From positions 1 through 38,846 of the forward strand of contig CANRPF010000013.1 in the NCBI GenBank assembly GCA_947632375.1: a stretch of DNA of 38,846 bases. The letters run 5' to 3'. Under the pieces are notes generated by a model, which saw nothing but the letters and a program-made list of their open reading frames with translations, searched no databases and had not been told where the DNA came from. Each line of letters begins with the position of its first letter. Within the stretch, counting starts at the first letter, position 1. Source of the stretch: an uncultured Bacilli bacterium (GTDB lineage Bacteria > Bacillota_I > Bacilli_A > RF39 > UBA660). Made by a program: the position numbers and the translations under genes. Of this stretch, positions 2,179 through 25,538 are shown piece by piece.

Positions 2179-3355
2179 TTAAAAATAATATTTGCACGAG
2201 TCTACTATCTCATAATCTGTGATAAATAATTGTGCTGTGATGTTGCCATTCCATTCATTTTTATTCGCTTCGCCAACACAATCAATTACAACATAACCTT
2301 GATTATTTTCTTGAAGTTTTTTACAATCTAAATCCGTTGCATTAAATAACATTAAACTTACTTTATTAGGTAATGTAATTTTAATTGTATTAGATGTTTT
2401 TCTATAAATAGTTACCATATCTGCGGTAACTTTTAAATTTTTAATAGCTAAAATAGGAGTCTCCATATCTTTTCCCCAAAAACTATCCATCTCTGCTATA
2501 TCAAGAATATTTTGTGGATTAACATTATTACCATCATATATATAATCTACATAGTATATTGCTTCATCAGACATATTTTTTAATGCTTCATTTGTAGATT
2601 GAATAAATGCGGGAATGTCTTGTTCGCGGAGAGCGAGCCCAAAGGCGCCTGGGTGCCCGGCCACATACATCGTTAACCCAGTCCCCGCGCATATATCTTT
2701 AAATTCAGTAACACCAACCTTATCACAGCCCCGCGCAGAGCCTTGATAGGATACTATTGTAGGTGTGTCTATTAAAACAACTTCATCGTCTTTATTTAAA
2801 AATTTAAGTGGCTTAGTTTCTTCTACTTTTGTTAAAATGCAACATGGCCGCTGATATTTAGCCATGAAACGATTTGCAATTAACCCTGCGACATTTTTAT
2901 TAACCTGCCCTGGTTCTACTAAGATAAGAAGAACTTTATTATTAAGTAAATGTTCTTCTTTTATTTTATTTTCAAGAAAAACCATACTTTCATCTTGAAT
3001 TTTATTTTGTTTATTCTTGACATTAATACATATTCTTATAGCTTGTTCAACTAATTGTTCCATTTCTCCTTGTTTATGTCCTCTTTTGGTTGATGGAATT
3101 TGTTGAAAAGCTTTAAAAAAAAGCATTGATTCAAATACTTTTTCTTTTTCCTCTTGATTTCCACTTCTAACTATTGCATTAACAAAAGGAGCAATGTAAA
3201 AAGCTGCTCCCCAGGACGTTATATGATCACCTAATTTAAATTGATTCTTTTGCCACATATTATAAATAAAAGGATTATGAATATTATCTGGTTCAAAACC
3301 TTTATTTATTAAATGCTTTGTTTCAAAAGATAGCAATGACTGCATATCCGCCGTT
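2179..3355 (-). CDS. recJ: RecJ-like DHH-family nuclease, exon 2 (DHHA1 domain)
   Basis: The supplied 438-aa ORF reads, from residue 48 onward, TADMQSLLSFETKHLINKGF... This aligns with the RecJ block TIADVVPLTGENRILVKYGL. The DHHA1 GGGH-like motif YVAGHPGAFG is present. The first 47 codons of the supplied ORF are the intron 3' region, not exon. Confidence 0.75.
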
Positions 3356-4457
3356 CGTAAATTCTTATGTTTCCATAAGCACTGACTATATTTTAATAAT
3401 ACTTTTGTATTACTATATCTCTTTCGGTTTTCATGTGCTTCGTTTCCTAAAACACAGTTACGTACTAATAGTAACCCTACTCCCCAGCATTTCAACCTTA
3501 GGGATAGTCGATACAGGCTTCAAATTACATGTTTCCAAGATTCTCTTTTACAAACAGTTCTAATTGTTCTCGCTTGTACTATTGAAAAATTTTTATGAAT
3601 AGAACTTATTGATTCACCATTATCATATCTTCTACGAATTTCTCTTACATCTGCTTCAGTTAATTTGGATTGTCCATTTCTTTCACCTTTATTAGCTTTA
3701 GATGAATATTCTTGTCTACTGATACTACCTGTTGGAATAATAAATTCTTTTCCTACATTTGGGTATCCATTACCAAGCCATACTTTTTCAAATGTTCCAA
3801 AACTATATTCTTGATAATCTTTATATACGTCCTTTTTTCGCTCACCTTGGTAACGACGTTTTCTTATATTATAGACTTGTTCATCTGTAAAAACTGCGTT
3901 AGCTGAATATTCACCTGTTAAAGAAGAAGTGTCTCCTCCTCCTATTGTTAAATTATATCCAATATCATTATTATTAGAATTATAATATTTTATCCAATAT
4001 TTTTCTCTTTCCTTTAATAAATTAAAATCATCAATATATTCTAAAATTTCTATTTCTGTAAAAGGACCATATTTTTTTATAGCTAAATCACAAGGTGAAT
4101 TAAAATGATGTAATAATCTATTAGGATTATTATGTTCATACATTCGTCTTTTTATATCATTACTTAAACCTATATAAATTTTTCCATTTGGATAATTTAA
4201 TTTATATATTCCAGATACATTATTAGGTAAATCTTTTAATTGTATTATTTCACTCATATTTTTCTCCTTTATTATATAAATATATATGAGTGTTATCTTG
4301 TAATTTGATTCCCACGGGATTTTCATAGTATTTTATAACACTCATGTCATCATGTCATAAATACTTTAGAATTAACCGTTAGCATTTAATAGTCTTTGTC
4401 CAAGATTATTAAATACCCTGCTAGTAAGCAGAAAAGATATATTAGCCCAACAAGCTC
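3356..4457 (-). mobile_element. group I intron carrying a GIY-YIG homing endonuclease gene, inserted in recJ
   Basis: Exon 1 ends ...LDLVALG + cu. P1 forms between the exon end GGCCU and the intron GGGC 10 nt downstream, with a G.U wobble at the splice site. The intron 3' region contains an R-like element (guaucGACUAuccc), an S-like element (aaaAUAUAGUCagug) and a P9 hairpin (CUUAUG-GAAA-CAUAAG). The 3' splice site follows G at 3356. The joined exons read LVALG-L-TADMQSLL, which restores the RecJ motif in frame. The 5' region is homologous to the gyrB intron 5' region. Confidence 0.75.
3520..4326 (-). CDS. GIY-YIG homing endonuclease (intron-encoded)
   Basis: N-terminus reads GIYKLNYPNGKIYIGLSNDIKRRMYEHNN (GIY...YIG...R...E...N). 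It sits inside the recJ intron. RBS AAAGGAG is present. Confidence 0.85.
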   Translation of the reverse strand: MKIPWESNYKITLIYIYIIKEKNMSEIIQLKDLPNNVSGIYKLNYPNGKIYIGLSNDIKRRMYEHNNPNRLLHHFNSPCDLAIKKYGPFTEIEILEYIDDFNLLKEREKYWIKYYNSNNNDIGYNLTIGGGDTSSLTGEYSANAVFTDEQVYNIRKRRYQGERKKDVYKDYQEYSFGTFEKVWLGNGYPNVGKEFIIPTGSISRQEYSSKANKGERNGQSKLTEADVREIRRRYDNGESISSIHKNFSIVQARTIRTVCKRESWKHVI

Positions 4458-5125
4458 AGGCCTAAAGCAACTAAATCAAGATATTTATCTGCATAATGTT
4501 GATTTATTAAACTATCTATATATCTACAAAATTGCCACGTAACTCCAACACCTGATAATTGTTTATTAGGATAATCACTTAATTGATTGTTTATAACAAT
4601 AGCATAAGGAGAGATTTCTTCTGCTTCATGATGATCGAGTATAATAATTTTTGTGCCTATTTTATTTAATCGTTCATGGTAAATTATATCATTTGAACTT
4701 GCGTCTGGTATTACAACTAAATAATATTGTTTTTTCTCTAATAAATCACAATAATCACTTAATCCATGTTGTTTACCATCATGTAAGTACCAATTTAATT
4801 TATTTTCAACCCATGCGGGATATAAATCATATAAATAATTAATTAAAAGCGCGGAGGATGTGTATCCATCCGCATCGGCGTCTACAATAATCGCACATTC
4901 TTTATTAGCTTTTATGCATCCTATAAGCGCGGCCGCCGCGTTTCTTAGCACATCTTCTCCAAATAGCAATGGAGAATTTATATCTTCATCTGTTGTATTA
5001 ATATAATGAGGAATATCCTCTAGCTTAATTCCACGATTCATTAATATAATTTCTAATGCGCTGTATTTTTTTAATTGCTCATCTGCATATTCTTTAATTA
5101 GTTTATATTTCATATTTTTCTCCAA
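4458..5125 (-). CDS. recJ: RecJ-like DHH-family nuclease, exon 1 (DHH domain)
   Basis: IVDADADGYTS carries the DHH motifs I-II and IILDHHE is motif III. It ends ...KYLDLVALG, matching RecJ LDLVALG. The supplied ORF reads on to an in-intron stop (LSLLG*). Confidence 0.8.
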
Positions 5126-5834
5126 TAATCATATCTAGTGTAATTTTATCTCGCTCCCAATATGGAATACGAACGAGAGGAATATTATGTTTTTTTGCTA
5201 TTTCATTTTTAATATTATCTCTTAATTTTCTGTTCTCATAACTGTCGGATTTAAACCATAAATCTCCATCTATTCCAAAATGTTGTTTTCCATCAAATTC
5301 AACCAATTTTATAATTTGATTATTTTTGTCTAAAATTGCAAAATCATATTTTTTTCTTTTATCTTCTTCAAAAGAAAATTGAGAAATATAATTAATATTA
5401 TTCTCGTCTAAAATTTTTTTAATATTTTGTTCTCCAACTGACTCTCGTAAACATCCACATGATTGAACAAGAAAACTATTTAGATTATTAAGAGAAACTT
5501 CTTTAGTATTGCCGCAATCGCATTTACACATCCATACTACAGATCCAAATTCTCTTTTGTCTGTTGGATATAAGGCAACCAATTTTCCAAATCTTTGATT
5601 TGTAATATCTTTATGACTTTTTACTTTTATTCTACAATTTGGGCACATTACTTCTTCTTTTCGTATATGCTGTCCTTCTGCTGAAAAAATAGTATTACAT
5701 TTTAAACATTTACATTTATAATAAATTCTTCCATATCTTCTTTCAGGCTCCTCTTCTAATACGAGCAAATTGTTATAAATTTTATTTATCATTTCAATTT
5801 TTTTCATTTTTCTTCCTCCTATTTTATAGATCAA
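5103..5834 (-). CDS. Zn-ribbon plus DUF559/Vsr-like (PD-(D/E)XK) putative freestanding homing endonuclease, paralog 1
   Basis: Motifs CxxC...CPNC, WMCKCDCGN...SCGC, and a C-terminal block YDFAIL...VEFDGKQH...NIPLVRIPYW. It is paralogous to 32646-33374 and 34842-35672. It overlaps the recJ start by about 23 nt. Confidence 0.6.
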   Translation of the reverse strand: MIYKIGGRKMKKIEMINKIYNNLLVLEEEPERRYGRIYYKCKCLKCNTIFSAEGQHIRKEEVMCPNCRIKVKSHKDITNQRFGKLVALYPTDKREFGSVVWMCKCDCGNTKEVSLNNLNSFLVQSCGCLRESVGEQNIKKILDENNINYISQFSFEEDKRKKYDFAILDKNNQIIKLVEFDGKQHFGIDGDLWFKSDSYENRKLRDNIKNEIAKKHNIPLVRIPYWERDKITLDMIIGEKYEI

Positions 5835-5924: not shown

Positions 5925-7031
5925 TCATAAATATATCCTCTTATTAAACAATTCTAAAAAAACTTCTTTATCTTTATCAATAGGTGAATCTTTATATTCC
6001 AATTTATTTTTTTTATCAAATATAAAACTAATAGTAGCATAAGATGAATATTTTTTATGAATATCCATTAATTTTTTTGTCCATCTTTTAAATTCATCAT
6101 CACCAATTTCTTTAAACTGTTTATCAAAAGCAATAATAATTTCTTCAACGCCTAAAGATAACAATAACTGGACTTGATAAGAAATAAGAGAACTTCCGCA
6201 ACAAGCTACAGTTATATCATTTTCTTCTCCAAAATAGCTCGCGTAAGTAAGACAAAATTTTTCTCCCTCCGCGACTATTGCTTTTTTTATAATCCTTATA
6301 TTATCTTTACTATTATTTAAATTATATAAATTAAAACTAAGTGGATGATTATACATTTTATAATTAATAATAGCAGGACGATATTTTCCTTGATCTTCTT
6401 TTTCTTTAATTAAAGTTCTTTCTCTTATTCCTATTAAATTATTATTTATATCATAATGAGGAATAATAATACCTTGATTAACTGGATCATAAGCTATTCC
6501 CCTATGTAACATAACATTTCTTATAATACCTTCTTTTTCCCAAGGTAAAATATGTGGTAGTGGAAAGAATTTTAATATATCTTTATCATATATTTTTAAA
6601 TCTACTATTTTCTTTTGTTCTTCTTGATTTTTTATATATTCATATTTATCAAGTATTTCCCAATCTTTAAGAACTTTTTTATTTTGATTAAAATCAAAAG
6701 ATTGAGTAGTATAACCAAAATAATTTGTAACAAAAAGAATAGCTTGCGGAAGTGTCCATTCTTCTTTTGTACTAATTGTTTTTTGTTTACGAACTAATTC
6801 AAATATATCAAAACTACTTTCCGCGCATCCAGTATAACAATGAAATATTCCTTCTCCTTCATTGTCATAATAATATAATTTATATGATCCCTGTCCCGCA
6901 GGATTGTGACATATTGTACGAGATATAAAAGAATTACCTTTAATAGGCTGCGGTTCTCCGCCTAAATCTATTACTAATTCATATATTTGTTCTATTGTTA
7001 AAGATTTTTTTAATTCATCTTTATTAATCAA
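5925..7031 (-). CDS. dnaG: DnaG-type DNA primase (Zn-binding domain plus TOPRIM)
   Basis: Zn motif CHNPAGQGSYKLYYYDNEGEGIFHCYTGC. TOPRIM motif AIVAEGEKFCL...IIAFDKQFKEIGDDE. Confidence 0.75.
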   Translation of the reverse strand: MINKDELKKSLTIEQIYELVIDLGGEPQPIKGNSFISRTICHNPAGQGSYKLYYYDNEGEGIFHCYTGCAESSFDIFELVRKQKTISTKEEWTLPQAILFVTNYFGYTTQSFDFNQNKKVLKDWEILDKYEYIKNQEEQKKIVDLKIYDKDILKFFPLPHILPWEKEGIIRNVMLHRGIAYDPVNQGIIIPHYDINNNLIGIRERTLIKEKEDQGKYRPAIINYKMYNHPLSFNLYNLNNSKDNIRIIKKAIVAEGEKFCLTYASYFGEENDITVACCGSSLISYQVQLLLSLGVEEIIIAFDKQFKEIGDDEFKRWTKKLMDIHKKYSSYATISFIFDKKNKLEYKDSPIDKDKEVFLELFNKRIYL

Positions 7032-7297: not shown

Positions 7298-7626
7298 CCT
7301 TAATACTCTTACTTTCATAAGAGAGTAGACTATATCTTTACCATAGAATACATTATATTCCTTAGGTACCCAGTACTTCCACATAATGTGTACTCCCCGC
7401 TACAGGATAGTCGTTGAACCTTCTTCTATTCGAAGCTCGGCTGCATGGTTGCCCATATTATCTATATAATTTTTAAAACATTCACACTTAGGTTTGTTTC
7501 ATCCTTATGTTGTAGTTTATATAGCTTTAGGGTTTTCCAGCAATTCTCTGGGTAATAATCACTTAGTATTTCTACTAAGGACGACTGTTTCTAAAGTTTT
7601 AATAAATTTTAAAACCTTGTCCAATC
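7298..7626 (-). ncRNA. ORF-less group I intron in dnaB; boundaries plus or minus a few nt
   Basis: The minus-strand RNA contains a P2 hairpin CUUAGUA-GAAA-UACUAAG and a Q-like element AGAGAAUUGCUGGAAAACCC (compare Tetrahymena AAUUGCGGGAAAGG). It also has an R-like element caacGACUAuccu, an S element AAAGAUAUAGUC identical to the Tetrahymena S core, and a P9 CUCUUAU-GAAA-GUAAGAG. It is highly similar to the phoH intron (about 90 nt near-identical). Confidence 0.75.
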
Positions 7627-9957
7627 AGCAATAGCTTTTGCACCTCTCAATAGATTCTGATCATATCTTTGCGCAGTTCTAAATTCTGCATTTAATTGAG
7701 TTGCTGTTAAAATAAATATCCCATATTGATTACATAAATCTTTTAATCTAGTTGAAATCATAAATAATATATTATCTTCCCGCAATCCTTTTACTTTTGC
7801 TTTTGAAGATATTTCACTAAGAATTTTCATACTACTATGAATATAATCAAATCCTACATACTTAATATTAAAATCTCTAACGCCTCTTTTAATAGTATTT
7901 TCTATATCCTGCAATGAAAAATCTGGTAATTCTTCTATATAAATAGGACATTTTTTTAATAAATTAGCCGCGTATATTACTCTATTCAATTCATCTCCAT
8001 AGTAAGTATTATAAATAATATGCTCTTCATTAACATTTGCAAGAAAAGCCATCATCATTGTTTGTACTTCATCTAATTCTTGTTCTGTTGTAATAAATAA
8101 AGATGGCTCTTTAGTGCCATTTTTTATCCATTTGCCTTGAGTTAAATCGTATATCTCATCACATGCAATATTACATACATCCGCGATCATAGAACGAGTA
8201 TTATGTGTTACTATATAATCATTCATTAAAAATAAATGCTCTTCATTATCAACATAAAAACAGGTCATTTCTTCTGAATAATTTAATTTTTCTATTTTTA
8301 CAATAGGATTAAATAAATTTAATTCTTTTTTCTTTCCATTATTAAACCAAGATAATATTAAATCATGTTTTCTCTTCAATCTAAATAATTTTATTTTATT
8401 TTGAGGACTACCAATTATTTCTATCTTATAAAGAGGAAGAGAATCTTTATGATTATCTTCTAACCATGAAGCTTTAAAACCTAAACTTAAACATAATTCT
8501 ATTATATTATCTCTTAATTGTGGGCTTACAGTATAATAACTTATTCTACCTTTTTTTGAATCTATTGATCCATCAGTATCTAATAATCCATTTAATAAAT
8601 CTAATCTTTGTTCAACGCTACCTTCAAGATATTGTTTTGGAATAAATTTATCTTCAGATTTACACTGCATTAATTCAGGATATTCTTTAAGAGCTTCTTC
8701 TACCCAAACATTTATATGAGTATTACAATTAGGATCTTCAAAATTCCAATTATAATTAAATTTACTCGTTTTTTTACAAATCCAATTCATTTCATTAGCA
8801 AGAGCAGTTGGTAGTTCTTCATTTTTACTACTGAAAGATAGTGCTTTATTGCTCTTAGAATATCTAAAACTTCCATCTCCCAATAATAATCCCATGGTAT
8901 AGGGAGTTAAATAAAAATTCTTTTTAGAATACTGTACAGGTTGCTGCATAGGAATTAAAATTTGATAACCATGTCCATTTTTATATAATGGCATATTATT
9001 AATTTCTTTTAAAGTTTTTGTATTAAATTTTCTGGATAATTTAGATTCTTTTTTTTGTCCTTCAGTACAAAAACTCCATAAATGTTCATCACAACATTTT
9101 GCTTTTCTACCATCTTTAAAAGATATTTCCCATACTTCTTTTTCTCCTTGAGGATAAACAGCTTTAACTTTAGTTGGTTTCCCAAAAGCATCAAAAAGAT
9201 AATCTCCCACCTTAATATCTTCAACTTTCCGTTGCCCTTGAGGAGTTGGAAGAATAGTTGAATTAGGCAATGCTTTTCCTACTCCTGTTGAAGCTGATCT
9301 AAGATAAAATTTCTTTAAGCGGGCGCCGCGTGTAATTGTATTAATAATAGGTCCATAAAGCGGATAGCCTATTTCAGGAGTTGTTTGAAGGCGTTTTATT
9401 AGCTCTAAGGCACCGTCACCTGCGTTTACTAATATATTTTCTTTATTATCAACACAATTTAATCTTATATCTAAAATTTTTTGATCAATTATATCGGCAA
9501 TATCTTCAATAGAATGATTGTCGAGCCAATCTTCTTGAGCCTGTTTCTTTTTTATATCTAATATATTATCTATATCATATAACCAAGAAAGATCCATTCC
9601 TAAATCTTGATAAGCTCTTAATAATGTCATTTTTTTCATTCTATTGTAATAATAATCAAAAGCAGCTAATTGAGTAGTCTCACTTATTTTTTGAAGATAT
9701 TCCGCGCCTTTATATGTTTTATATACAGCTAATTTTTTTGGTCGTTGTGCTAAATAATCTTCTATTGCGGTGATATTTATTTTAATAGCTCCAAGAGCAT
9801 GAAGATTATAAATTGAACCAAATAAGATTCTATGAAATTCTTCAGGAAAATCTTCTTCTCTAAAATTGTATTTATCTTCTATATCTAATAAAGATGGATT
9901 GTTATAAATACCACCTATTACCTGAATAATTGCTGCCGTATCTACATATTTACCCAT
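7627..9957 (-). CDS. dnaB: DnaB-like replicative helicase, exon 1, including an in-frame intein (8200-9273)
   Basis: The N-terminus has DnaB features. The Walker A sequence is interrupted: ...LRSASTGVGK | intein | TRSMIADVCNIA. Removing the intein restores GVGKT. The H4-like region is ...LRGAKAIA. Confidence 0.8.
8200..9273 (-). mobile_element. intein (358 aa) with a LAGLIDADG homing-endonuclease domain, inserted in the DnaB P-loop
   Basis: It begins at Ala229 (ALPNSTIL...) and ends ...YIVTHN, with +1 Thr. Two LAGLIDADG motifs are present, LLGDGSF and LLDTDGSI. Excision gives a 424-aa DnaB with an intact GxxGxGKT. Confidence 0.8.
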
Positions 9958-10508: not shown

Positions 10509-10537
10509 ATTATAACATATTTTTTCATATAAATCAA
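10509..10537 (-). promoter_or_regulatory. sigma70-like promoter TTGATT-17-TATAAT with a TGt extended -10
   Basis: Minus-strand sequence is TTGATTtatatgaaaaaatatgtTATAAT, followed by RBS AAGGAG and the ATG of 9966-10475. Confidence 0.5.
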
Positions 10538-10542
10538 ATTAA

Positions 10543-10562
10543 GGCGCGGTATATACCGCGCC
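10543..10562 (-). terminator. rho-independent terminator after the AAA_24 ATPase gene
   Basis: Perfect palindromic hairpin GGCGCGGTATATACCGCGCC, followed by a U-rich stretch on the minus strand. Confidence 0.5.
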
Positions 10563-10566
10563 TATT

Positions 10567-11208
10567 TTATTTAAGCCATTCTTTTAATTCAGTATTAATC
10601 ATTTGAATCATTTCTACTTGATCTCTTGTGCATTGATTAATTTTTTTACCTTTACCTAAGTATTTTTCTATAATATGAGTAATCTTAGGACTATAATCTT
10701 GTTCAAATTCTTCTTTATCAATAGTTTCAATAAGGTTGTTAATCATTGAATTAAATTCATTTATTAATTTATCAAAATCTAATTCTTCTGCTTTTGTTAT
10801 AACATTTTTTTCTGTTGTGATATAATCTTCGCCATGTACTTCTGCTTCTTTATCAATAGCGATATTTAAAGCTTCTACAAGAGCATCATAAGATGAATGA
10901 ATTTCAGATGGAATATATTTTAGGCGGCCGCCGCATCTTACTGAACCATCTAAACTTCTTAAAGTAATAACAACCTCATTTTTACCATCTTTAAAAACTG
11001 GATGCAAGTATCCATAAATATCAACCATATTTTCTACAATACTATTATAACTAGTCGATACACTTGGATAAATTTGTGTAAATTCTGTACCATCTTGTCT
11101 TTTAAAAGTTCCCTCTTTGGAATGAGAAATAAATACAATAGCATAACCTAACTGTGCTATTGCTTGAAAGACATCTTCAAATTCTTTCTTTAAAGCTGAC
11201 CATCCTCC
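10567..11208 (-). CDS. Sak4/AAA_24-like phage ATPase, exon 3
   Basis: GGWSALKKEFEDVFQAIAQLGYAIVFISHSKE... shows an ISH sensor typical of RecA-like AAA_24 proteins. The supplied ORF's TTG 'M' is the last intron codon. The 3' splice site follows G at 11209. Confidence 0.65.
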   Translation of the reverse strand, partial: GGWSALKKEFEDVFQAIAQLGYAIVFISHSKEGTFKRQDGTEFTQIYPSVSTSYNSIVENMVDIYGYLHPVFKDGKNEVVITLRSLDGSVRCGGRLKYIPSEIHSSYDALVEALNIAIDKEAEVHGEDYITTEKNVITKAEELDFDKLINEFNSMINNLIETIDKEEFEQDYSPKITHIIEKYLGKGKKINQCTRDQVEMIQMINTELKEWLK

Positions 11209-12326
11209 CAATTATGTTATCGTAAAGGTTTTTTATCCTTTACTTCTTACATTTACTTATTCATGTAAGTTCAGCATATCTTTTAATCTTATTGCTCTGA
11301 AATAAGATCCGAAGCCTCGTGGGAACTATATTTCAATAATAATTCAGTATAATGCAAATATTTTCTTTGCATTCTAAGAGCTTTTGTAGAAGGTAATTTA
11401 TAAAATAATTTATATAATTTTAATCCATTTTCATAATTATAAAAATAAAGTCTATATATTTGTAAATTTACTATTGAAGATTTTTTAGTTATTTTAGAAT
11501 GAATATCATATTCTTTTAACACTTTTTGAATATGTTCTAAAGTTGCTAAAGAAGTTGAATCTATTTGCCAAGAAATCGTTCCATTGCTCCATTTAATAGA
11601 TCCGTCGCCATCAAAAAAACCTCTTATAAAATCAATATAATATTTTGGTTCGATATTTCGTAAAAAATCTAAATTATAATTTGTTTTGTTTGGTATTATA
11701 TTATATAAACTAAGGTCTTTTTTTATTTGCATTGAAAAGAAATATAGTTTACTATTTTTAGTACCTTTACTATGATTTTCATAATCTTTTACAGGTCTTT
11801 CATTTTGAATTTCACTGTTTATTTTCTCTAAGATTTCCTTATCTTGTCTTTGTAATTCTATATATATTTGATTTTGACTTTTTGCTACGCACCCATCAGA
11901 TGCCAACATCCCTAAAATATATGCAGAATTATGAGACTGATTATGAATATCAAAATAGTTATCATTTATTTTATAAGTTCTATTGCTTAATTTGGAATTA
12001 TTAAAGTTACTTGTACGTCTAATTTCAATATTATTTTCTTGTAAAACTCTAACTATGACTTTATCCGTATGATTATATCTTTTAGCTATTTTTTTTCTAG
12101 GCTCTCCATTTTTATAACTTTCACAAATATCCTTTATTTCTTCTTTTGAAAAATTTACTCGTTTAGCCATACCGGTCAAACTCCTTCTATATTATTGTTT
12201 AATGTTCCTATGCGTTGCGCGTGTTATAACTTTTAAATTATAACTTCCGCTCTGATTAGCATTTCAGCCTTCCAGTTTTTGCTTCGTTTTCACTAATATA
12301 TCACTATACTAGGCGGCAGAGATCCT
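11209..12326 (-). mobile_element. group I-type intron 2 of the ATPase gene, carrying a LAGLIDADG HEG
   Basis: Exon 2 ends ...EVPYG with ggU. The intron 5' core (12200-12300) is homologous to the intron 1 5' core (13610-13700). The exon 2 + exon 3 frame is restored. R/S core elements were not confidently identified. Confidence 0.6.
11289..12179 (-). CDS. LAGLIDADG homing endonuclease with an N-terminal HTH (intron-encoded)
   Basis: Motifs AYILGMLASDGCV and IRGFFDGDGSI. The likely true start is MAKRVNF, with RBS GGAG upstream. Confidence 0.8.
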   Translation of the reverse strand: MTGMAKRVNFSKEEIKDICESYKNGEPRKKIAKRYNHTDKVIVRVLQENNIEIRRTSNFNNSKLSNRTYKINDNYFDIHNQSHNSAYILGMLASDGCVAKSQNQIYIELQRQDKEILEKINSEIQNERPVKDYENHSKGTKNSKLYFFSMQIKKDLSLYNIIPNKTNYNLDFLRNIEPKYYIDFIRGFFDGDGSIKWSNGTISWQIDSTSLATLEHIQKVLKEYDIHSKITKKSSIVNLQIYRLYFYNYENGLKLYKLFYKLPSTKALRMQRKYLHYTELLLKYSSHEASDLISEQ

Positions 12327-12592
12327 ACCGTATGGAACTTCACCAAGAGCATTTACTCCTTTTTGTGAACAAATATATTTTTCACACATTGTAGCAGCTC
12401 TATCAACTGTATCAATTACTATTGTAGAAAATTTTTCTTTTACTCCCTCTTTAGCTAATTCTCTAACTACTTGTTTAATATCTGACCATTTTGTAATATC
12501 TTGGGCAAATACACCAGGTAGTGCATTGTACCCTCTTTCAGTTGCTAATAAAAGAGGGTTTGGAAACTGCGATGCTAAAGTCGACTTCCCTG
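12327..12592 (-). CDS. Sak4/AAA_24-like phage ATPase, exon 2
   Basis: (S)GKSTLASQFPNPLLLATERGYNAL...STIVIDTVD carries the Walker A GKST and Walker B IVID. The upstream part of the supplied 135-aa ORF is intron. Confidence 0.7.
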
Positions 12593-13730
12593 CTTTTGGC
12601 ATTATCTTATTAATTAGGTTTTTTATCCTAATTCTGGAGGTTTCCCTCATCATTATATTCGGAAAGTTTAGGAATATAACTACAATCAGTCTTTTCTGAT
12701 TCAGATGAGCATACATTTTCTACCTTCTTTTTAAAGGTAGCCTTGGCTCGTGGGTCTAATTTTTCTATTCTATAAGAACAAAAATCTAAAAATTTATCTT
12801 TCTTTCTCTGTAAACATGGACTATCACTCATGAAAGAATAGAACCGATTTAATATCACATAGCTTCCAATAGTAGAGATTTCTAATGAATATAAATTATT
12901 CCCAGATGGTTTTAAATTACAATAAATACCAACATGACAATTATATTCGGATTCAATTAATTTTTTAAATTCTTCTAAAATTCCTTTTTTATAAGAACAA
13001 ATTTTAAATGTTCCTTGTAAAGTATTTTTATTCCAAGAAAAAGAACCATCGCCATCAAAATACCCTTTTAAAAAGTACCATTTAAGATTATTATCTGGAA
13101 TATTTTTCATTGTTATTCCAATATAAGTTTTATCTGGAATAATAGAATACTTTTTTAAATCTTCTTTTATTTGTTTAGAATTAAATCTATAACTAGAAAT
13201 AGCATACCCCTTATTATTTATTGTAGATGAAATCTTATGAGCAGATTTCAACTTTTTTTTAAATTCTTCTAGCCATTTAATATCAATAGAAGCTAAAGCA
13301 ATTTTAATTTCATTATCTTTTTTTCTAACAGTTCCATCTGCTGCTAAAAAACCTAAATAATAAGTATTCTCATTATTTAATTGACTGAAATATCCATGAT
13401 CAATAGCAAAGCCTCTGCTTTGATTTGTAATAATTAATTGCTCACGTCTATTGCGGATATGGATATGTTCATTATTTAAAATTTTTTTTATATCATCTAT
13501 GTGAATATTATAATCTTTTGAGCATTGAGTTAAAGATTTACCATTTTTATAATCTTCAATCAATAGGTTGTTCATAAATAAAACAAGCACTCCTTTTTAA
13601 ATTTTCTTATAGTTTCAGACCGATGCGTTGCGCGTGGCGCGACTTTTAAATCGCGCCTTCCGCTCGTATTAGCATTTTAAAGCCTTTACGGTTTTCCAAG
13701 GTAGTTCACAGTTACATTACTGCAACTGGG
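12593..13730 (-). mobile_element. group I-type intron 1 of the ATPase gene, carrying a LAGLIDADG HEG
   Basis: The 5' splice site follows U of ...caagugggU. The 3' splice site follows G of ccaaaaG. The junction gives GPQVGS|GKST, a perfect Walker A. Confidence 0.65.
12628..13590 (-). CDS. LAGLIDADG homing endonuclease with an N-terminal HTH (intron-encoded)
   Basis: Motifs LGFLAADGTV and LKGYFDGDGSF. The probable ATG is at MNNLL (around 13575), with RBS AAAGGAG. Confidence 0.8.
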   Translation of the reverse strand: MLVLFMNNLLIEDYKNGKSLTQCSKDYNIHIDDIKKILNNEHIHIRNRREQLIITNQSRGFAIDHGYFSQLNNENTYYLGFLAADGTVRKKDNEIKIALASIDIKWLEEFKKKLKSAHKISSTINNKGYAISSYRFNSKQIKEDLKKYSIIPDKTYIGITMKNIPDNNLKWYFLKGYFDGDGSFSWNKNTLQGTFKICSYKKGILEEFKKLIESEYNCHVGIYCNLKPSGNNLYSLEISTIGSYVILNRFYSFMSDSPCLQRKKDKFLDFCSYRIEKLDPRAKATFKKKVENVCSSESEKTDCSYIPKLSEYNDEGNLQN

Positions 13731-15647: not shown

Positions 15648-16025
15648 TTAAAGATTATCGGACATATAATTAATACCTTTTTCTGTAAGACTATATGTAG
15701 TTGGACCTTTTCCAACTTTTGAAACAAGACCTTCTGTAATTAATTTTCTTACACATCCAGATACCGCATGACCAGAAATAGATAATCCTTCTCCAATATC
15801 GTTTGTTACAAAAGTATTATTATATTTATCTTTATTTTCATATAAAAAAGTTAAAACCTTTAATCCACTTTCTGTAACTGGTATCATAAATCTAACATTA
15901 TCTTTTTTTAAATCATTAAAAAAAGATAATGCTGAGTCATACTCTTCTTCATAGGCTTCTTTGATATAATCTTTTTCAAAAATTTCTTTTTGTACAATTT
16001 TAACAAAAGCTTCTTTTTTAGTCAT
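15648..16025 (-). CDS. winged-helix DNA-binding protein
   Basis: C-terminal wHTH, ...LSISGHAVSGCVRKLITEGLVSKVGKGPTTYSLTEKG. Confidence 0.5.
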   Translation of the reverse strand: MTKKEAFVKIVQKEIFEKDYIKEAYEEEYDSALSFFNDLKKDNVRFMIPVTESGLKVLTFLYENKDKYNNTFVTNDIGEGLSISGHAVSGCVRKLITEGLVSKVGKGPTTYSLTEKGINYMSDNL

Positions 16026-16100: not shown

Positions 16101-16946
16101 TTATTGAAATAAAATTAGTTCATTCGCGTACGGTAACGATTCTACCCATTCACAAAATCCACCTTTTCCTGACCATTCTGAAAGCTTATGATTTTTACGT
16201 TGAAAATACATATTACGAAGATTCTCATAATTCATTGTTATAGTGCGGGTTTGCAACCATCCTTGCGGAAGCCACCGCACAAGTTCTTTCCAATATTTCT
16301 TATCTTTTGTTTCAATATATTTTTGTCTAAGTTCTTCTAAAAATGGAATTAAATCATGCTCAATAGTAAGAAGACCTTCATCATTAAGTGACTCTATGCA
16401 TTTTTTATCATAATCATCAATTTCAAAACAATCAATAGTAATAGGAGTTGATACTAAAGTATGCATTGAAGATGTACTATTTGTTGTAGTACCTATTTTA
16501 TATGTATCAGCCTCTTTCCACCAATAGACTGGAGCAGTAATATCTACACTTACAAAAATTTGACGTAAAAACTTTCTATGTTCAGGACCAGCTTTTATAA
16601 GTTTTTGAGCAAGAGCTAAATCATTCGGACCAATAAAAGCAACATCAATTATATCATTATCATCACTATCATTATAATATAAAATTCCGTTTTTTAATAG
16701 CCATTCATTATATTCATCTTCTAATTTGATTCTTTCATCTTCTTTATTATAATCTTCTGAATTTAAATCATAATAGGATGGATAATCTTTTTTTACATAT
16801 TTTTCAGCAACTTCATAACCATAAGCATCATAAATTTTATCTATGCATCCAAAGAAACTATCACTTTTATTCCAACTATTTAAAGGATTGCGAAGTCCTC
16901 TGAATGCACCTTCAAAATTAAATACTCGTGTATGTTCAAATTTCAT
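16101..16946 (-). CDS. ThyX-like (flavin-dependent thymidylate synthase fold) protein, divergent
   Basis: Blocks resemble ThyX. [23 protein letters not shown] aligns with ThyX [40 protein letters not shown] aligns with [20 protein letters not shown]. The RHR...S..RY substrate motif is not conserved; it reads ...[14 protein letters not shown]. Confidence 0.35.
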   Translation of the reverse strand: [281 protein letters not shown]

Positions 16947-17970: not shown

Positions 17971-18246
17971 TTACTCCTTATCCTCGTCTTTAGCGTCTGG
18001 ATCAAATTCCTTACCTTCAGCAGTAAGAGAGATAAACTTTACAGGCTGATGACTTCCATCTTCAAGCTCGATCTCTGCGGGCTTTCTTACCATAAGACCT
18101 TTTCTCTGAAAAGCAGAAGTAACAATACCATTTACACTACGAACAGGAATGCCAGTTCCCTCTGCAATATCTGCTGCTGTCATCTTCTCACCATCATGCT
18201 CCAATACATAATCATATACTTTTCTAGCGTTCTCTTTTAATGCCAT
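17971..18246 (-). CDS. small acidic HTH protein; compositionally atypical (GC-richer, different codon usage)
   Basis: Reads MALKENARKVYDYVLEHDGEKMTAADIAEGTGIPVRSVNGIV... with an acidic C-terminus. The coding DNA is visibly GC-richer than its surroundings. Confidence 0.5.
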   Translation of the reverse strand: MALKENARKVYDYVLEHDGEKMTAADIAEGTGIPVRSVNGIVTSAFQRKGLMVRKPAEIELEDGSHQPVKFISLTAEGKEFDPDAKDEDKE

Positions 18247-20017: not shown

Positions 20018-22417
20018 TTATAACTTAACTACTGACATTACTTTACTATTTTTAATTGCCATATTTCCTATACTAATTCTACTTAATAAAGGAATTTCCT
20101 TAGCTTCAATACAAATTGAATTAGGCTGACCAACTATTAGGAAATTATCTGTATCATCAACCATTGCCGCGCCAATTATATCTCCAATTATAGAAGTTTG
20201 TTTATACGCGGTGATGCCCTTACCCGCGCGCAACTGGAACGGAAATTCGTCAAGTCTACATTTCTTTATATAACCATTTTTAGTAACAAAAGCAACATAA
20301 TCAGTTACTTTATGAATTGGTAAACCAATTAAAACTTCATCATCATCAGTTAGTTTAATTGATTTAACACCTGCGGTTACCCGCCCTATGGGAGCTATGT
20401 CCTCGGTCGGGAAGTGAATGACCAAGCCCCGCCGCGTTATTACAAGCACTTCCTCTTCATTCATAAAAGTTACATTTGCTATTGTGTCATTTTCTTTTAG
20501 TTTTATTGCGGCGATGCCTGTAGTCTTTTTAATTTTACTATACTCTTCAAGTTTAGTCTTTTTAATTAATCCTTTTTTAGTAAAGAATACTACATATTTA
20601 GCTACACTATCTCTATATAATGAAGTTATTGCAATAACTTTTTCATCTGGTTCAATGTTAATAAGAGTGTTTACATTTACTCCTTTTGATATATTAGTTC
20701 CAATAGGAATACTATCTACCAATAATTTAAACATTCTACCTTTTGAAGTAAATAGCATTAAATTATCGACTGTATTAGTAGATATTGTTTCTAATACCGC
20801 ATCATCTATACTTTTAATTCCTTTTCCATTCCTTCGTTGTATTTTAAAACTCTTTTTGGGAATTCTTTTAATATCACCATTTTGTGTTAGAATAACAATA
20901 ACATCTTCTGGAACTACTTCTTCTATCTCTTTTTCTTCTTTTGGAACTTCGATATTAAGAAGCTTAGTTCTTCTTGCGTCTCCATATCTATCTCTTAACT
21001 TAGTGATTTTTTCAATGAGAATCATATCTCTATATGATTCCTTAGTTAAAATTTCATTGCACTTAATAATAATCTTTTCTTTTGCTTCTAGTTCTTTAAG
21101 AAGATCATCTTTGTTAAGTTTCGTTAATCGAGCGAGTTTCATGTCAAGAATTGCGTCAGCTTGAGTGTCTGTAATACCAAAGCGCGCAACTAACTTTTCT
21201 TTAGCTTCTTCTCTTGTATATGACTCTTTAATTAATATAATAGCAGTATCAATATCTTTAATAGCAACTAAAAGACCTTCAAGCACATGTTTACGTCTCT
21301 CCGCTTTATTTTTATCAAAAGTAGCTGTATTGATAAGTACATTAGTTTGATGAATATAATATGCTTTAATTAAATCCAACAGAGAACAAAGCTTAGGAGT
21401 ACCGTTGACAATAAAATTCATATTGTATGATACTGTTGTTTGTAAATCAGTTAAAGCAAATAACTTATTAACTGCTTTCTCTGGGTTTACATCTTTCTTA
21501 ATATAAAAAACTAACTTATTTTTACCTACACCAGATTCATCATCAAAATCTTCAATATATTCATTTAATTTATCTGCATTAATGCCAATTTGCTTTTTTA
21601 TTTTATTTCTATACGTTCTATATGGGATAGAAGTAAAAGTAACTTTTTGTCCATCTACCTTATAATCTCCACGTACCTTTAATGAAATATTTGTTTTACC
21701 AGTGCGAAAAGCTTCTTTTATATCTTTTGCATTAATAATTACATTGCCAAGCGGAAAGTCTGGCCCCTTAATATACTCCATTATCTCATCGAGCGAGATG
21801 TTATGATTTTTAATAAAAGCTATAATTCCATTGCATACCTCAGTTAGATTATGACTTGGGCTAGAATGGGACATTGAAACACCAATAGCTTGACGACCAT
21901 TACATAATGCATTAGGGAATAGTCCAGGAAGAAATACAGGCTCTTGAAACTCGCCATTATAAGTTTCTTTAGCTGGAACAACATTCTTATCATAGTCTAT
22001 CATCATTAAGTCAGTATAGATTGATGGCTTTGTTTCAGTATACCTGCTACTAGCCCATACATTATTCGCTTCTTGTGTTCCTAATGAACCTTGTCCATCA
22101 ACAAGTGGATACCGCATTAAAAACGCCTGAGACATCTTACATAGTACGCCATAACAGGCTTGATCGCCGTGAAAGTAGCTGGTCATTAGGGTACTTCCTA
22201 TTACGGCATTACTTTTTTTAGTCTTGCTCTTTGAGTTCATCTTAAGATAATCTTCCATTGTCCATAAAATTTTTCTTTGAGAACTCAATAATCCATCTTC
22301 CGCGGAGGGTATAGCTCTATCAGTCAAGACCTCTTCCGCGAAAGTTAAGAAACATTCTTTACTTTCATCAAGAATATCTATATTTGTTATATTGCTCATA
22401 ATACCCTCCTTAGTCAA
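20018..22417 (-). CDS. type II DNA topoisomerase subunit A (GyrA/ParC/T4 gp52-like)
   Basis: RAIPSAEDGLLSSQRKILW aligns with RALPDVRDGLKPVHRRVLY. The active-site region is WASSRYTE (compare AMRYTE). The C-terminal repeat domain is present. Confidence 0.8.
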   Translation of the reverse strand: MTKEGIMSNITNIDILDESKECFLTFAEEVLTDRAIPSAEDGLLSSQRKILWTMEDYLKMNSKSKTKKSNAVIGSTLMTSYFHGDQACYGVLCKMSQAFLMRYPLVDGQGSLGTQEANNVWASSRYTETKPSIYTDLMMIDYDKNVVPAKETYNGEFQEPVFLPGLFPNALCNGRQAIGVSMSHSSPSHNLTEVCNGIIAFIKNHNISLDEIMEYIKGPDFPLGNVIINAKDIKEAFRTGKTNISLKVRGDYKVDGQKVTFTSIPYRTYRNKIKKQIGINADKLNEYIEDFDDESGVGKNKLVFYIKKDVNPEKAVNKLFALTDLQTTVSYNMNFIVNGTPKLCSLLDLIKAYYIHQTNVLINTATFDKNKAERRKHVLEGLLVAIKDIDTAIILIKESYTREEAKEKLVARFGITDTQADAILDMKLARLTKLNKDDLLKELEAKEKIIIKCNEILTKESYRDMILIEKITKLRDRYGDARRTKLLNIEVPKEEKEIEEVVPEDVIVILTQNGDIKRIPKKSFKIQRRNGKGIKSIDDAVLETISTNTVDNLMLFTSKGRMFKLLVDSIPIGTNISKGVNVNTLINIEPDEKVIAITSLYRDSVAKYVVFFTKKGLIKKTKLEEYSKIKKTTGIAAIKLKENDTIANVTFMNEEEVLVITRRGLVIHFPTEDIAPIGRVTAGVKSIKLTDDDEVLIGLPIHKVTDYVAFVTKNGYIKKCRLDEFPFQLRAGKGITAYKQTSIIGDIIGAAMVDDTDNFLIVGQPNSICIEAKEIPLLSRISIGNMAIKNSKVMSVVKL

Positions 22418-23954
22418 AATTAAAACCTAATCTTGTTGCATTTTTATAAATAAAATCCTTACGTGGCTCTATCGCGGACCCCTGGAGAATTTCAAGGAGT
22501 TCTGTTGTAGCTTTAGCATCACTAACATTAATTCTTTTATAAGTTTGACGTTCGAAGCAAACTTTATGCAAGTCCTCAGGATTCAACTCTCCTAACCCTT
22601 TTGCGCGTAATACATCGCATGATACATTTTTATTCGCGGTCTTCCACTCTTCAAGCTCCGCATCACTATAAAAATATAACTCTTCTTTTTTTGTTCTAAC
22701 AATATAAAGCGGAGTGACTGCTCTATAGAGCTTCCCTTGTTCTACTAATGGGCGCATATAAGTATAAAAGAAAGTAATTAATAACAGCTCAATCGCCATG
22801 CCGTCAGAGTCTTGGTCTGATGTAATAATAATCTTGTCAAAATTCATTTTGTCTACATCAAACTTATCATTACCAAAACCCGCGCCAATCACCTTAATTA
22901 TATCAGACATCTCTTGGTTCGCTAATATCTTGTCTACTGACGTTTTAAGCGGGCTAATAATTTTTCCGCGCAGCATGTAGATACAATCAGTCTTTGCATT
23001 TCTTGCTTCAATGGCACTAGAACCAGCACTTAATCCTTCAACCAAAAGAAGATTACGTTCTTTAGGATTCTTACTAATGCAGTCAATAAATTTATCACTC
23101 AACTGCATTTTTGCCTTTAGACCTTTTTCTTTTGGTTTTCTAACTGCCTCTCTCGCCTTTTTAGCGGCGTCCCGCGCTTTCCGCGCATTAATAGCTTTAT
23201 CTGCAATTAATTTAATTTCTTTTTCATTATTATTTAACCAAATCTGAAGGTTCTCTGTTAAAGCTTGAATAAAAGGTTTTGTATCAATTTTAGTGATTCT
23301 ACTTTTAACCTGCGCATCATATGATACATTAGGTGCAGTTATATTAAATACGATATACATTCCTTCTTGTATATCATCACCCGTTAAATTTTCATCTTTA
23401 TCTTTTAACCATTTTTTTTCTCTAAAGAATTTATTGAATTCTCTAGTTAAAGTTGTCTTAATCTGTGTAATATGCGGACCTGATTCAGTTAATCCAGTAT
23501 TGACATATGGAACAATAGTAGAAGAATAATTGGATGTATATGTCATAACTAAATCCATTTTATTCTTACCTTCCGCGAATTTCATATTAAATCTATTATT
23601 AATAATTTCTTTCGCGGCGACCGCATCATCTACCAAATCATTTAATCCTTTTGAGGAATAATATTTAATTTTTTCTCCATTATTATTAAGATTAATTGTT
23701 AATCCCGGACATAAACATACAATAGTTCTAAATAAATCTTTAATTTTATTTATTTCTACTTCTGTATGTGTAAAAAATTCTTCAGATGGTTGCCAAGAAA
23801 CTATAGTACCAGTATCTGTTGGTTTATAAGGCTCTACAATTTCTCCACCAAAACGAGTATCAGTTATACCTTCTTCAAAATGAACAGTTTCAAATTGTCC
23901 ATCTCTAAAAGTTATAACATCTAAATAATGTGATAAAAAGCAAACTAGCTTACT
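22410..23954 (-). CDS. type II DNA topoisomerase subunit B (GyrB/T4 gp39-like), exon 2
   Basis: (S)KLVCFLSHYLDVITFRDGQFE aligns with GyrB VSVVNALSEWLEVEVWRDGK. The TOPRIM motif is LLLVEGLSAGSSA and the C-terminal part is present. The supplied ORF's GTG 'M' is the intron's terminal G codon. It overlaps the subunit A start by 8 nt. Confidence 0.75.
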   Translation of the reverse strand, partial: SKLVCFLSHYLDVITFRDGQFETVHFEEGITDTRFGGEIVEPYKPTDTGTIVSWQPSEEFFTHTEVEINKIKDLFRTIVCLCPGLTINLNNNGEKIKYYSSKGLNDLVDDAVAAKEIINNRFNMKFAEGKNKMDLVMTYTSNYSSTIVPYVNTGLTESGPHITQIKTTLTREFNKFFREKKWLKDKDENLTGDDIQEGMYIVFNITAPNVSYDAQVKSRITKIDTKPFIQALTENLQIWLNNNEKEIKLIADKAINARKARDAAKKAREAVRKPKEKGLKAKMQLSDKFIDCISKNPKERNLLLVEGLSAGSSAIEARNAKTDCIYMLRGKIISPLKTSVDKILANQEMSDIIKVIGAGFGNDKFDVDKMNFDKIIITSDQDSDGMAIELLLITFFYTYMRPLVEQGKLYRAVTPLYIVRTKKEELYFYSDAELEEWKTANKNVSCDVLRAKGLGELNPEDLHKVCFERQTYKRINVSDAKATTELLEILQGSAIEPRKDFIYKNATRLGFNFD

Positions 23955-25187: not shown

Positions 25188-25538
25188 ACCAATGCCAAAA
25201 GAACCTAGACTTGTTCCTTCATAAGTCCCATCTTCTCTATATTTACCAGATGTATTTAATACACTAAAAGCAGCTTCAAGAATTGTTTTTCCATCTTCTC
25301 TAAATGAATTAGGAATAAAACCTTGACCATAATCTCTAACAGATACATTATCTTTATCTATTAAAACATTAATCTGTTTTCCATGACCTAATTGAAATTC
25401 ATCAATAGCATTAGATATAATTTCAATTAAAAGCTGTGTTGAATATGTAGTATCACCGCAATACACCCCAGGTTTAAGACGAGTGAAAGAACGAGGGTCA
25501 AGACTCTCTATAGATTTTTCATCATATAATTTTCCCAT
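25188..25538 (-). CDS. type II DNA topoisomerase subunit B, exon 1 (GHKL ATPase N-terminus)
   Basis: Matches the GyrB N-terminus: IESLDPRSFTRLKPGVYCGDT...EIISNAIDE...VRDYGQGFIP...GKYREDG...GSFGIG. The supplied ORF's terminal R* lies in the intron. Confidence 0.75.

Follow-up and report, generated by a model that had tools for sequence, protein, structure and literature searches.

How does a GC-rich word come to be repeated exactly, and in different reading frames, in a genome made largely of A and T? The question is raised by contig CANRPF010000013.1 (assembly GCA_947632375.1, deposited as an uncultured Bacilli bacterium). The whole stretch analysed, called the window below, is the complete 38,846-bp NCBI contig, and it carries the replication/repair module of a large phage. 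The 11-mer GCGGCCGCCGC, built around the NotI octamer GCGGCCGC, occurs in four exact copies, three on the plus strand (4929-4939, 10924-10934 and 34216-34226) and one inverted (28747-28757), as a sequence-only reading of this DNA had noted. The window has a G+C content of 29.4%, with GC skew and AT skew both uniformly negative. Not one of 100 dinucleotide-preserving shuffles contained a single copy of the 11-mer, and the octamer is found 4 times where 0.05 are expected, in line with the chance value far below 1 given by that reading. All long open reading frames (ORFs) are on the minus strand, so that the coding-strand spelling of the three genic copies is GCGGCGGCCGC. These copies are indeed translated in three frames in three different genes: as NAAAAL in the N-terminal part of a RecJ-like protein (frame 0), as RCGGRL in the C-terminal part of a Sak4-like protein (frame 1) and as QRRPR in an RNA ligase (frame 2). 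The fourth is intergenic: it follows the stop codon of the PhoH C-terminal ORF by about 21 nt and sits in a 106-nt stretch that separates two ORFs. In 1000 shuffles retaining each protein sequence and the codon usage of each gene, 0.02 genic copies of the 11-mer were expected against 3 observed, and 0.13 of the octamer against 3. No shuffle reached the observed number of 11-mers, so that local codon usage for Ala, Gly and Arg, the explanation that could have undone the claim, does not account for it. As had been proposed, it is the nucleic acid that is constrained, not the protein: the excess is found in all three frames and between ORFs, and outlasts the codon-preserving shuffles.

The 11-mer is nevertheless not the real unit, as that reading had taken it to be. 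It is one spelling, with CCG or CGG as spacer, of an inverted repeat with eight specified bases, GCGG-N3-CCGC, hereafter the dyad (Nn stands for a spacer of n bases). This spelling, GCGG-CCG-CCGC, is also a perfect 5+1+5 palindrome, GCGGC-N-GCCGC, its NotI core being the N0 overlap of the half-sites. Inverted half-sites GCGG...CCGC occur in the window 8 times with N3, 5 times with N4 and twice with N6, making 15 instances (Table 1), while the mirror arrangement CCGC-N-GCGG is found solely where it overlaps copy 3. A comparison of all 256 four-base stems with 3- or 4-nt spacers, whose baseline was the window's own inflated 4-mer counts, singled out GCGG...CCGC as the only enriched stem (N3, 8 vs 0.18, p = 2e-11; N4, 5 vs 0.18, p = 1e-6); no significant enrichment was detected for the N6 class. 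Against the codon-preserving shuffles, the genes hold 7 N3 dyads where 0.21 are expected and 4 N4 variants where 0.06 are expected, numbers reached in 0 of 1000 shuffles. The N3 dyad is present at 7 of the 12 positions in the coding sequence of the window where the amino acids are compatible with it. Independent half-sites, at their saturations of 15% and 12%, predict about 0.2 dyads instead of the 7 observed. The mirror word fills none of its 14 compatible positions (0/6 for N3, 0/8 for N4). The phage creates the dyad wherever its protein sequence nearly permits, and does so through the rare G/C-ending codons GCG, NCC, CGG, CCG, GGC and CGC.

The spacers are unconstrained, and most are of non-repeat sequence (e.g., TTT, CTC, TCG). 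Once a dyad is present, most of the exact spelling of the 11-mer is forced by the runs of Ala, Gly or Arg. Of the 5 cases in which the spacer is free, 3 have the inward extension that yields the 11-mer, where 0.5 would be expected; these small numbers are suggestive of a preference for it. Outward extension of the arms to CGCGG...CCGCG is seen in 5 of the 15 dyads of the window, in keeping with a subclade-specific excess of CGCGG described below. The 15 sites range from 4.9 to 37.4 kb; 12 are inside genes, at fractional positions of 0.07-0.87, and their spacing is slightly more even than random (coefficient of variation, CV, 0.59; P about 0.03). Solitary half-sites bear a weak imprint of the missing partner, with 26 three-of-four matches at N3 and 23 at N4 against 7 at N5.

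Table 1. Inverted half-sites GCGG...CCGC in the window, with the gene or gap in which each lies.
Feature	Position	Strand	Context
Dyad GCGG-CCG-CCGC, 11-mer copy 1	4929..4939		RecJ-like N-part, encodes AAAA; arms extend to CGCGG/CCGCG
Dyad GCGG-CCG-CCGC, 11-mer copy 2	10924..10934		Sak4-like C-part, encodes CGGR
Dyad, 11-mer copy 3, opposite orientation	28747..28757		Intergenic, after PhoH C-part; overlaps palindrome CCGCGCGG
Dyad GCGG-CCG-CCGC, 11-mer copy 4	34216..34226		RNA ligase, encodes QRRPR; not an insertion
Dyad GCGG-GCG-CCGC	9319..9329		DnaB N-extein (TRGAR), 14 residues upstream of intein
Dyad GCGG-CGA-CCGC	23614..23624		GyrB (AVAA)
Dyad GCGG-GAG-CCGC, 5-bp arms CGCGG/CCGCG	26642..26652		Endolysin (AAPA)
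Dyad GCGG-AAA-CCGC, 5-bp arms	37370..37380		MVP-shoulder/SPFH-like protein (AVSA)
N4 variant GCGG-TTCT-CCGC	6950..6961		Primase-like gene
N4 variant GCGG-TTAC-CCGC	20373..20384		GyrA
N4 variant GCGG-CGTC-CCGC	23164..23175		GyrB
N4 variant GCGG-ATTT-CCGC, 5-bp arms	31911..31922		ORF 31722-32066
N4 variant GCGG-TCTG-CCGC	36861..36872		Intergenic, ORF 37051-38814 / ORF 35699-36559
N6 variant in GGCGCGG-TATATA-CCGCGCC	10546..10559	-	T-rich run after; 21 nt past Sak4 stop
N6 variant GCGG-AAGCCA-CCGC, membership uncertain	16265..16278		ORF 16101-16946

Is the dyad a peculiarity of this contig? No near relative was found among GenBank phages, and the relatives of the window are metagenomic: gut and rumen contigs 130-195 kb long, with 45-78% protein identity (the RNA ligase, for example, has a 78%-identical relative, P0004), some of them binned with Bacilli or Clostridia metagenome-assembled genomes. 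Members of the clade include the 139.6-kb contig CANQQR010000001.1 and the 99.5-kb Logan contig from which L029 comes. Exact-protein look-ups of the RNA ligase of the window and of P0004 returned no record. As the sequence-only reading had suggested, the word was sought in these related phages, and the dyad recurs across the family. In 407 kb of de-replicated related-phage loci, the spacing spectrum gives N3 = 40, N0 = 15, N4 = 9 and 0-5 for the others, against 1.9 expected, and the spectrum of the mirror is flat. About half of the N0 cases lie inside N3 sites and the N4 cases come mainly from the window; the relatives have 32 N3 against 4 N4, 2 N5 and 3 N6. The peak was replicated in 396 kb of loci fetched independently around Sak4 (N3 = 16, N0 = 8, expected 1.4, mirror 0). 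The relatives carry the dyad at 26 of 115 compatible positions, about half of these in L028 and L029, and the mirror at 0 of 110; for the window and relatives together, the mirror with a 3-base spacer, CCGC-N3-GCGG, is present at 0 of 116 compatible positions. Runs of four alanines are spelled GCG GCN GCC GCN in 11 of 15 cases in the relatives. In the 407 kb, 40 perfect dyads face 88 with one mismatch, while composition predicts a ratio of about 1:44, i.e. perfect sites are in about 20-fold excess. Codon phase alone was rejected as an explanation: the spacers N6 and N9, which are in the same codon phase as N3, are unenriched, and this rules out codon periodicity; phase is, moreover, preserved in the shuffles.

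Alignment with homologs shows which part of the site is retained. At site 1 (numbered as the 11-mer copies in Table 1), the window has GCG GCG GCC GCG and L027 has GCG GCA ACC GCA, with stems kept and a different spacer. At site 2, TGC GGC GGC CGC in the window corresponds to TGC GGT TGC CGC, i.e. GCGG-TTG-CCGC, in four relatives (L038, L039, L044, L075). At site 4 the residues QRRP are conserved; their codons CGG CGG CCG in the window are CGG CGT CCG in L019 and L020 (GCGG-CGT-CCGC), and AT-rich in other relatives (CGT AGA CCA or CGT CGT CCT). The RNA ligase also has a dyad position, in RKAxxA, common to L001, L009, L021 and L022, with the spacers CAT, CTC and TGC. Positions in AAAAF and ADSA are likewise common to L028 and L029, with differing spacers. 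These cases indicate that the stems are held while the spacer drifts. Alignments with the homologs at sites 1, 2 and 4 are free of gaps, QRRP, [CA]G[GCS]R and AA[AT]A being aligned residues, and this excludes the insertion of a mobile GC cluster. Where the dyad is present at site 4, the residue that follows QRRP has a codon starting with C (R or H); most genomes without the dyad have D, N or K there, with two exceptions that have a C-starting L or H. This suggests that the presence of the dyad goes with a change of residue at a variable position.

The dyad stands within a broader excess of G/C words. Short G/C islands are about 5 times too frequent in the window. The words CGCGG/CCGCG amount to 74 copies, a 14-fold excess over composition and a 6-fold excess over the codon shuffles; counts observed against expected are 83 vs 24 for CGCG, 61 vs 16 for CCGC and 66 vs 11 for CGCGG/CCGCG. 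None of the three frames is exempt from the excess, which also extends to the 5.9 kb not covered by long ORFs. Total CpG is unchanged, CpG flanked by A/T being depleted. CGCGG is split between strands into 43 sense and 31 antisense copies, 5-fold and 8-fold enriched, respectively. A general mutual attraction of G and C was considered and excluded, since GGGGG, GGGCC, CCGGG and CCCGG are at or below expectation in the window. GCTGC is depleted (5 vs 14). To note, the family is split with respect to CGCG, which is either purged or enriched: six 21-kb loci (L005, L006, L013-L015 and L023) have 0-1 CGCG/CGCGG where 11-17 are expected, and L015 has no GCGC and 113 CCGC. A cluster of three G/C islands of non-dyad type (GGCGCCTGGGTGCCCGGCCAC, GTCCCCGCGC and CAGCCCCGCGCAG) is found within 95 bp at 2644-2738, at the C-terminal end of the OB part of RecJ.

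The distribution of these words differs between resident and selfish genes. Of the 15 dyads, none is in the ten homing-endonuclease/intein elements that make up 22% of the window; of the 74 CGCGG/CCGCG words, 4 are. Saturation of CCGC/GCGG is 16-17% in core genes and 4-5% in selfish genes (p = 2e-8). Control G/C words differ as well (4.5% in core genes, 1.7% in selfish genes), and none of the 12 dyad-compatible positions falls inside a selfish element; the lower GC content at third codon positions (GC3) of the selfish genes thus accounts for part of the contrast, which is nonetheless real. The dyads show no tight association with homing-endonuclease genes or intein junctions in the window, the one at 9319 lying 14 residues from the DnaB intein.

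What would keep such a word in place? The sequence-only reading had offered a protein-binding, packaging, modification or recombination site as candidates. A protein recognition site is the best reading, and nothing points specifically to packaging or recombination. We favour, with a confidence just short of even, the view that positive selection maintains the dyad as the recognition word of a protein, probably dimeric, that binds or processes DNA in a sequence-specific manner. Large AT-rich phages of one clade, with Firmicute-type hosts, would owe the density of GCGG-N3-CCGC in their resident genes to this selection; in the window, the arms of the word often extend outward, to CGCGG/CCGCG, or inward, to the GCGGC-N-GCCGC of the 11-mer. 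Eight specified bases, strict symmetry, a sharp 3-bp spacing, a free spacer and the lack of compensatory stems would fit a dimeric sequence-specific DNA protein. The simplest model, given the fixed spacing and the symmetry, is a dimer bound to duplex DNA, but the protein may read either the duplex or a small hairpin, extruded or single-stranded. A protein reading mini-hairpins, by analogy with the virion RNA polymerase of phage N4, is possible and would accommodate the N4 variants of the window. The geometry of a Type II recognition site, a palindrome with a fixed-length free spacer, is present in the dyad; the depletion expected of a Type II restriction site is the opposite of what is seen, the dyad being about 20- to 40-fold enriched. 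No methyltransferase domain was found by Pfam in the 40 long ORFs of the window. Many sites are favoured, individual positions matter little and most are genic, so that the dyad more likely marks the genome than regulates genes. Candidate roles, as judged from these features, are loading, nicking or priming, modification, and protection. We entertain, more doubtfully, that the clade rewrote synonymous sites and some amino acids to fill its genes with an 11-bp dyad serving as a putative genome-wide mark. With equal reserve, such a mark could play the part of Chi or uptake sequences, in palindromic form and independently of orientation, for protecting, nicking/priming or modifying the chromosome.

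Several observations weigh against a recognition word read by a dimer. No dyad position is common to the window and L028 or L029 in the part at 23-38 kb, from which it follows that many individual sites turn over and that mainly the number of sites persists. The density of dyads is very uneven among relatives, and zero in some of them, such as L005, L006 and L023. No candidate reader emerged, the winged helix-turn-helix proteins, with small ones at 15648-16025 and 17971-18246, and the many nucleases of the window not being linked to the dyad. The five N4 variants and the imperfect partners at N3 and N4 would be poorly tolerated by a rigid dimer, as opposed to a hairpin. A dimer site alone also leaves unexplained about 60 solitary CGCGG/CCGCG words and the excess of CGCG.

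An unlikely, though not negligible, alternative is that the dyad acts as a small hairpin in single-stranded DNA or RNA and not as a duplex dyad; it could be a lagging-strand priming or loading signal, a promoter of the phage N4 type, or an element of RNA processing or stability. The dyad is by construction an inverted repeat, the window accepts N3, N4 and N6 spacers as well as imperfect partners at N3 and N4, and the spacing of the sites, slightly more even than random at about 2.3 kb, is near the size of an Okazaki fragment in a module that encodes primase, DnaB, RecJ and Sak4. One intergenic member, at 10546, folds, in the region 10520-10580 of the minus strand, as a convincing 9-bp hairpin (-18.9 kcal/mol, z = -3.3) followed by the U-rich tail TTAATTTGATTT; it looks like a good intrinsic-terminator candidate according to the predicted fold, and is the sole such site among the 15, with the same half-sites as the dyad. 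The four 11-mer sites, on the contrary, have no U-run such as a terminator downstream of a gene would show, and their predicted RNA folds are no better than those of shuffles, that of site 4 being worse. Most stems are 4 bp long, the outer flanking pair is usually non-complementary, and the inward extension of the 11-mer leaves a 1-nt loop that is unable to fold. When three pairs of the stem are intact, the fourth is the canonical one in 40 cases, and another Watson-Crick pair never exceeds background; there are no compensatory stems at any of the four pairs, and no other stem of the 256 is enriched. The mirror, which would be equally stable, is never used, and the relatives hold the spacer sharply at 3. 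Absent compensation, the unused mirror, the 4-bp stems and the 1-nt loop make a pure hairpin function hard to reconcile with the data. Searches of the window at the Rfam gathering thresholds or at E = 0.5 gave no match, and ARAGORN found no tRNAs. As for a hairpin promoter, the 3-nt spacer fits, but the 4-bp stems (5 bp in 5 of 15) and the genic location do not.

It is rather improbable, a shade more so than the hairpin, that the word arose neutrally, through a mutation or repair bias with sequence specificity, and not by selection for a function; possible forms are a cytosine-methylase-linked repair of the very-short-patch (VSP) type, or a methylation that shields the cytosines of CCGC/CGCG from deamination during drift towards A+T. 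Vsr repair is known to raise CCWGG-related words in E. coli, and a bias of this kind would agree with the excess of CGCG, CCGC and CGCGG/CCGCG at unchanged total CpG, with the depletion of A/T-flanked CpG, with the differing site positions of close relatives, and with relatives that are either enriched in or devoid of CGCG, as if host enzymes differed. Selfish genes (endonucleases and inteins), apparently recent arrivals, also show far less of the excess, yet the control words differ there too, in part through GC3. Eight positions, however, are more than one methylated cytosine per strand can hold, and the half-sites are strongly cooperative (58% against about 2% expected), with a mirror arrangement that is never used. 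Transition variants are the commonest one-off forms and are not depleted, contrary to what VSP drive would produce, and the fifth residue of site 4 tends to a C-starting codon where the dyad is present. Chi-like words, for which the sequence-only reading had proposed to look, are improbable: at least the solitary CGCGG/CCGCG would attenuate the host AddAB/RecBCD nuclease, and the dyad would be a signal in both directions. A short G/C-rich word in excess in every frame, about one per 525 bp, an 11-nt dyad that is identical when read from either end, and Firmicute Chi words that end in GCGG (AGCGG, GAAGCGG) speak for it. The lack of strand polarity, with 43 sense and 31 antisense copies that are both enriched, does not, and Chi recognition gives no reason for the fixed 3-bp spacing or the missing mirror. 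A trivial side effect (chance, slippage of (GCS)n triplets, avoidance of GCWGC forcing GCS codons, or an inserted mobile GC cluster) is very improbable and already largely refuted. The 11-mer has a period of 3 (GCG GCG GCC GC), GCTGC is depleted and several palindromes are strongly avoided in the window; however, no shuffle reaches the observed counts, and the phase-matched N6 and N9 spacings are flat. Slippage is excluded, as sites 1, 2 and 4 show no length difference from their homologs and most spacers are non-repeat, and so is GCWGC avoidance, as the relatives retain GCTGC within their dyads (GCG GCT GCC GCN). A general correction of quasi-palindromes is likewise excluded by the enrichment of one stem in 256.

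Among described systems, the closest case is that of the cluster O mycobacteriophages, Corndog and its relatives, which carry 34 dispersed copies of the 17-bp repeat TGTTCGG-N3-CCGAACA (PMC4351075). The spacer of 3 bp is free, some copies are in genes, and the repeat is missing from the host genome; a dimeric binding protein was proposed by the authors, who thought transcriptional regulation unlikely (PMC4351075). Both words have inverted arms, a free 3-bp spacer, the core CGG-N3-CCG and dispersed copies (15 in 38.8 kb here). The arms are 7 bp long there (TGTTCGG) and 4-5 bp here (GCGG or CGCGG). The cluster O genome is GC-rich, so that the repeat is not conspicuous by composition, and most of its copies occupy intergenic DNA or the beginnings of genes, in positions that all members share. 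Of the 15 sites here, 12 are genic and written in rare codons, about half of the compatible positions are filled, and many positions differ between relatives. A literature search on the degenerate dyad word returned the cluster O repeat as its sole match, and one on CGCGG, Chi in Firmicute phages and over-represented palindromes returned nothing specific. What is unusual in the present dyad, as compared with other dispersed phage dyad words, is that, in a genome rich in A+T, it comes near to saturating the coding positions.

Other dispersed words resemble the dyad in part. Chi and the DNA uptake sequences (DUS/USS) are short words enriched in all frames through synonymous or conservative changes, for which number outweighs position. 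The dyad is likewise written into coding sequence, but Chi, DUS and USS are asymmetric and polar or read during competence, whereas the dyad is strict, with fixed spacing and without polarity. The hairpin promoters of the virion RNA polymerase of phage N4 have a short G/C-rich stem and a 3-nt loop, recognised sequence-specifically by a phage protein. Phage N4 has three of them, with stems of 5-7 bp, upstream of early genes; the dyad has 4-bp stems and 15 sites in 39 kb, mostly genic. In E. coli, very-short-patch repair (CCWGG) increases a methylase-type word in all frames without any function of the individual site. There the effect is small and limited to a single position within a 5-mer, as against eight positions, an approximately 30-fold excess and cooperative halves here. 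The stoperators of cluster A mycobacteriophages are dispersed repressor sites of temperate phages, asymmetric 13-mers that are oriented with transcription and mostly intergenic. They share with the dyad the many copies of a protein-binding word across a phage genome, the dyad being a predicted binding word.

Over-represented words have led before to proteins acting on whole chromosomes: Chi to RecBCD, KOPS to FtsK and uptake sequences to competence receptors. The present dyad fills about half of the coding positions of the window that could accommodate it, and rare codons are the price paid. A reader, if there is one, would define a new phage DNA transaction that is directly testable, and could also provide a marker of this clade of uncultivated 130-195 kb phages. 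A conspicuous exact repeat can thus be the tip of a degenerate dyad that repeat finders based on alignment overlook.

The window also shows a marked avoidance of certain palindromes. Relative to codon shuffles, CAATTG (0 vs 18), TCTAGA (0 vs 8), AACGTT (0 vs 4) and GATATC (1 vs 12) are nearly or completely absent, and TTCGAA (1 vs 7), CCGG (6 vs 15) and TCGA (23 vs 44) are reduced. CAATTG and GATATC are missing from L029 too. This avoidance probably reflects host restriction systems.

The module encodes RecJ, primase, DnaB, Sak4, DNA ligase, GyrA, GyrB, RNase H, endolysin, PhoH, an RNA-repair set and a vault-shoulder/SPFH-like protein. Five of its replication/repair genes are interrupted. RecJ (2179-5125) is split by a GIY-YIG gene (3520-4326), and Sak4 (10567-13590) by a LAGLIDADG ORF (11289-12179), a second LAGLIDADG ORF lying at 12628-13590. 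DnaB (7609-9957) contains a LAGLIDADG intein that begins after the P-loop (GVGK|ALPNSTIL). GyrB (22410-25538) is split by a GIY-YIG+HTH gene (24088-25014) and is intact in L029, and PhoH (28779-30331) is split by a 267-nt gap devoid of ORFs and is intact in L028. Group I intron models gave no match at E = 0.5 in the interrupted genes of the window. Three DUF2726 paralogs (5103-5834, 32646-33374 and 34842-35672) match phage homing-endonuclease families. At the locus of the third, L029 has a Pyr_excise gene and L028 has nothing, a variation that indicates that these paralogs behave as free-standing mobile nuclease genes.

At the left end, a PAPS-reductase-like gene (1089-2047) seems to be frameshifted in its PP-loop, one frame ending with VSFSGERTVQYS* and the other continuing with GKDSTVLLDLVRKVYPD; a pseudogene, a sequencing error in a homopolymer and programmed frameshifting are possible explanations. 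A ParB-like partner beside this gene was considered and rejected, as the left-end ORF has Walker A/B-type motifs and resembles an SF1 helicase by eye. An RNA-repair-like module at 30678-36559 comprises the RNA ligase, an AAA_33/KTI12-type kinase and two metallophosphatases, L029 having a Thg1-like gene nearby; it may counter host anticodon nucleases. Finally, the ORF at 37051-38814 encodes a 587-residue protein with the shoulder and repeat domains of the major vault protein and an SPFH/Band-7 signal, which is unusual for a phage and has an 838-residue homolog in L029.

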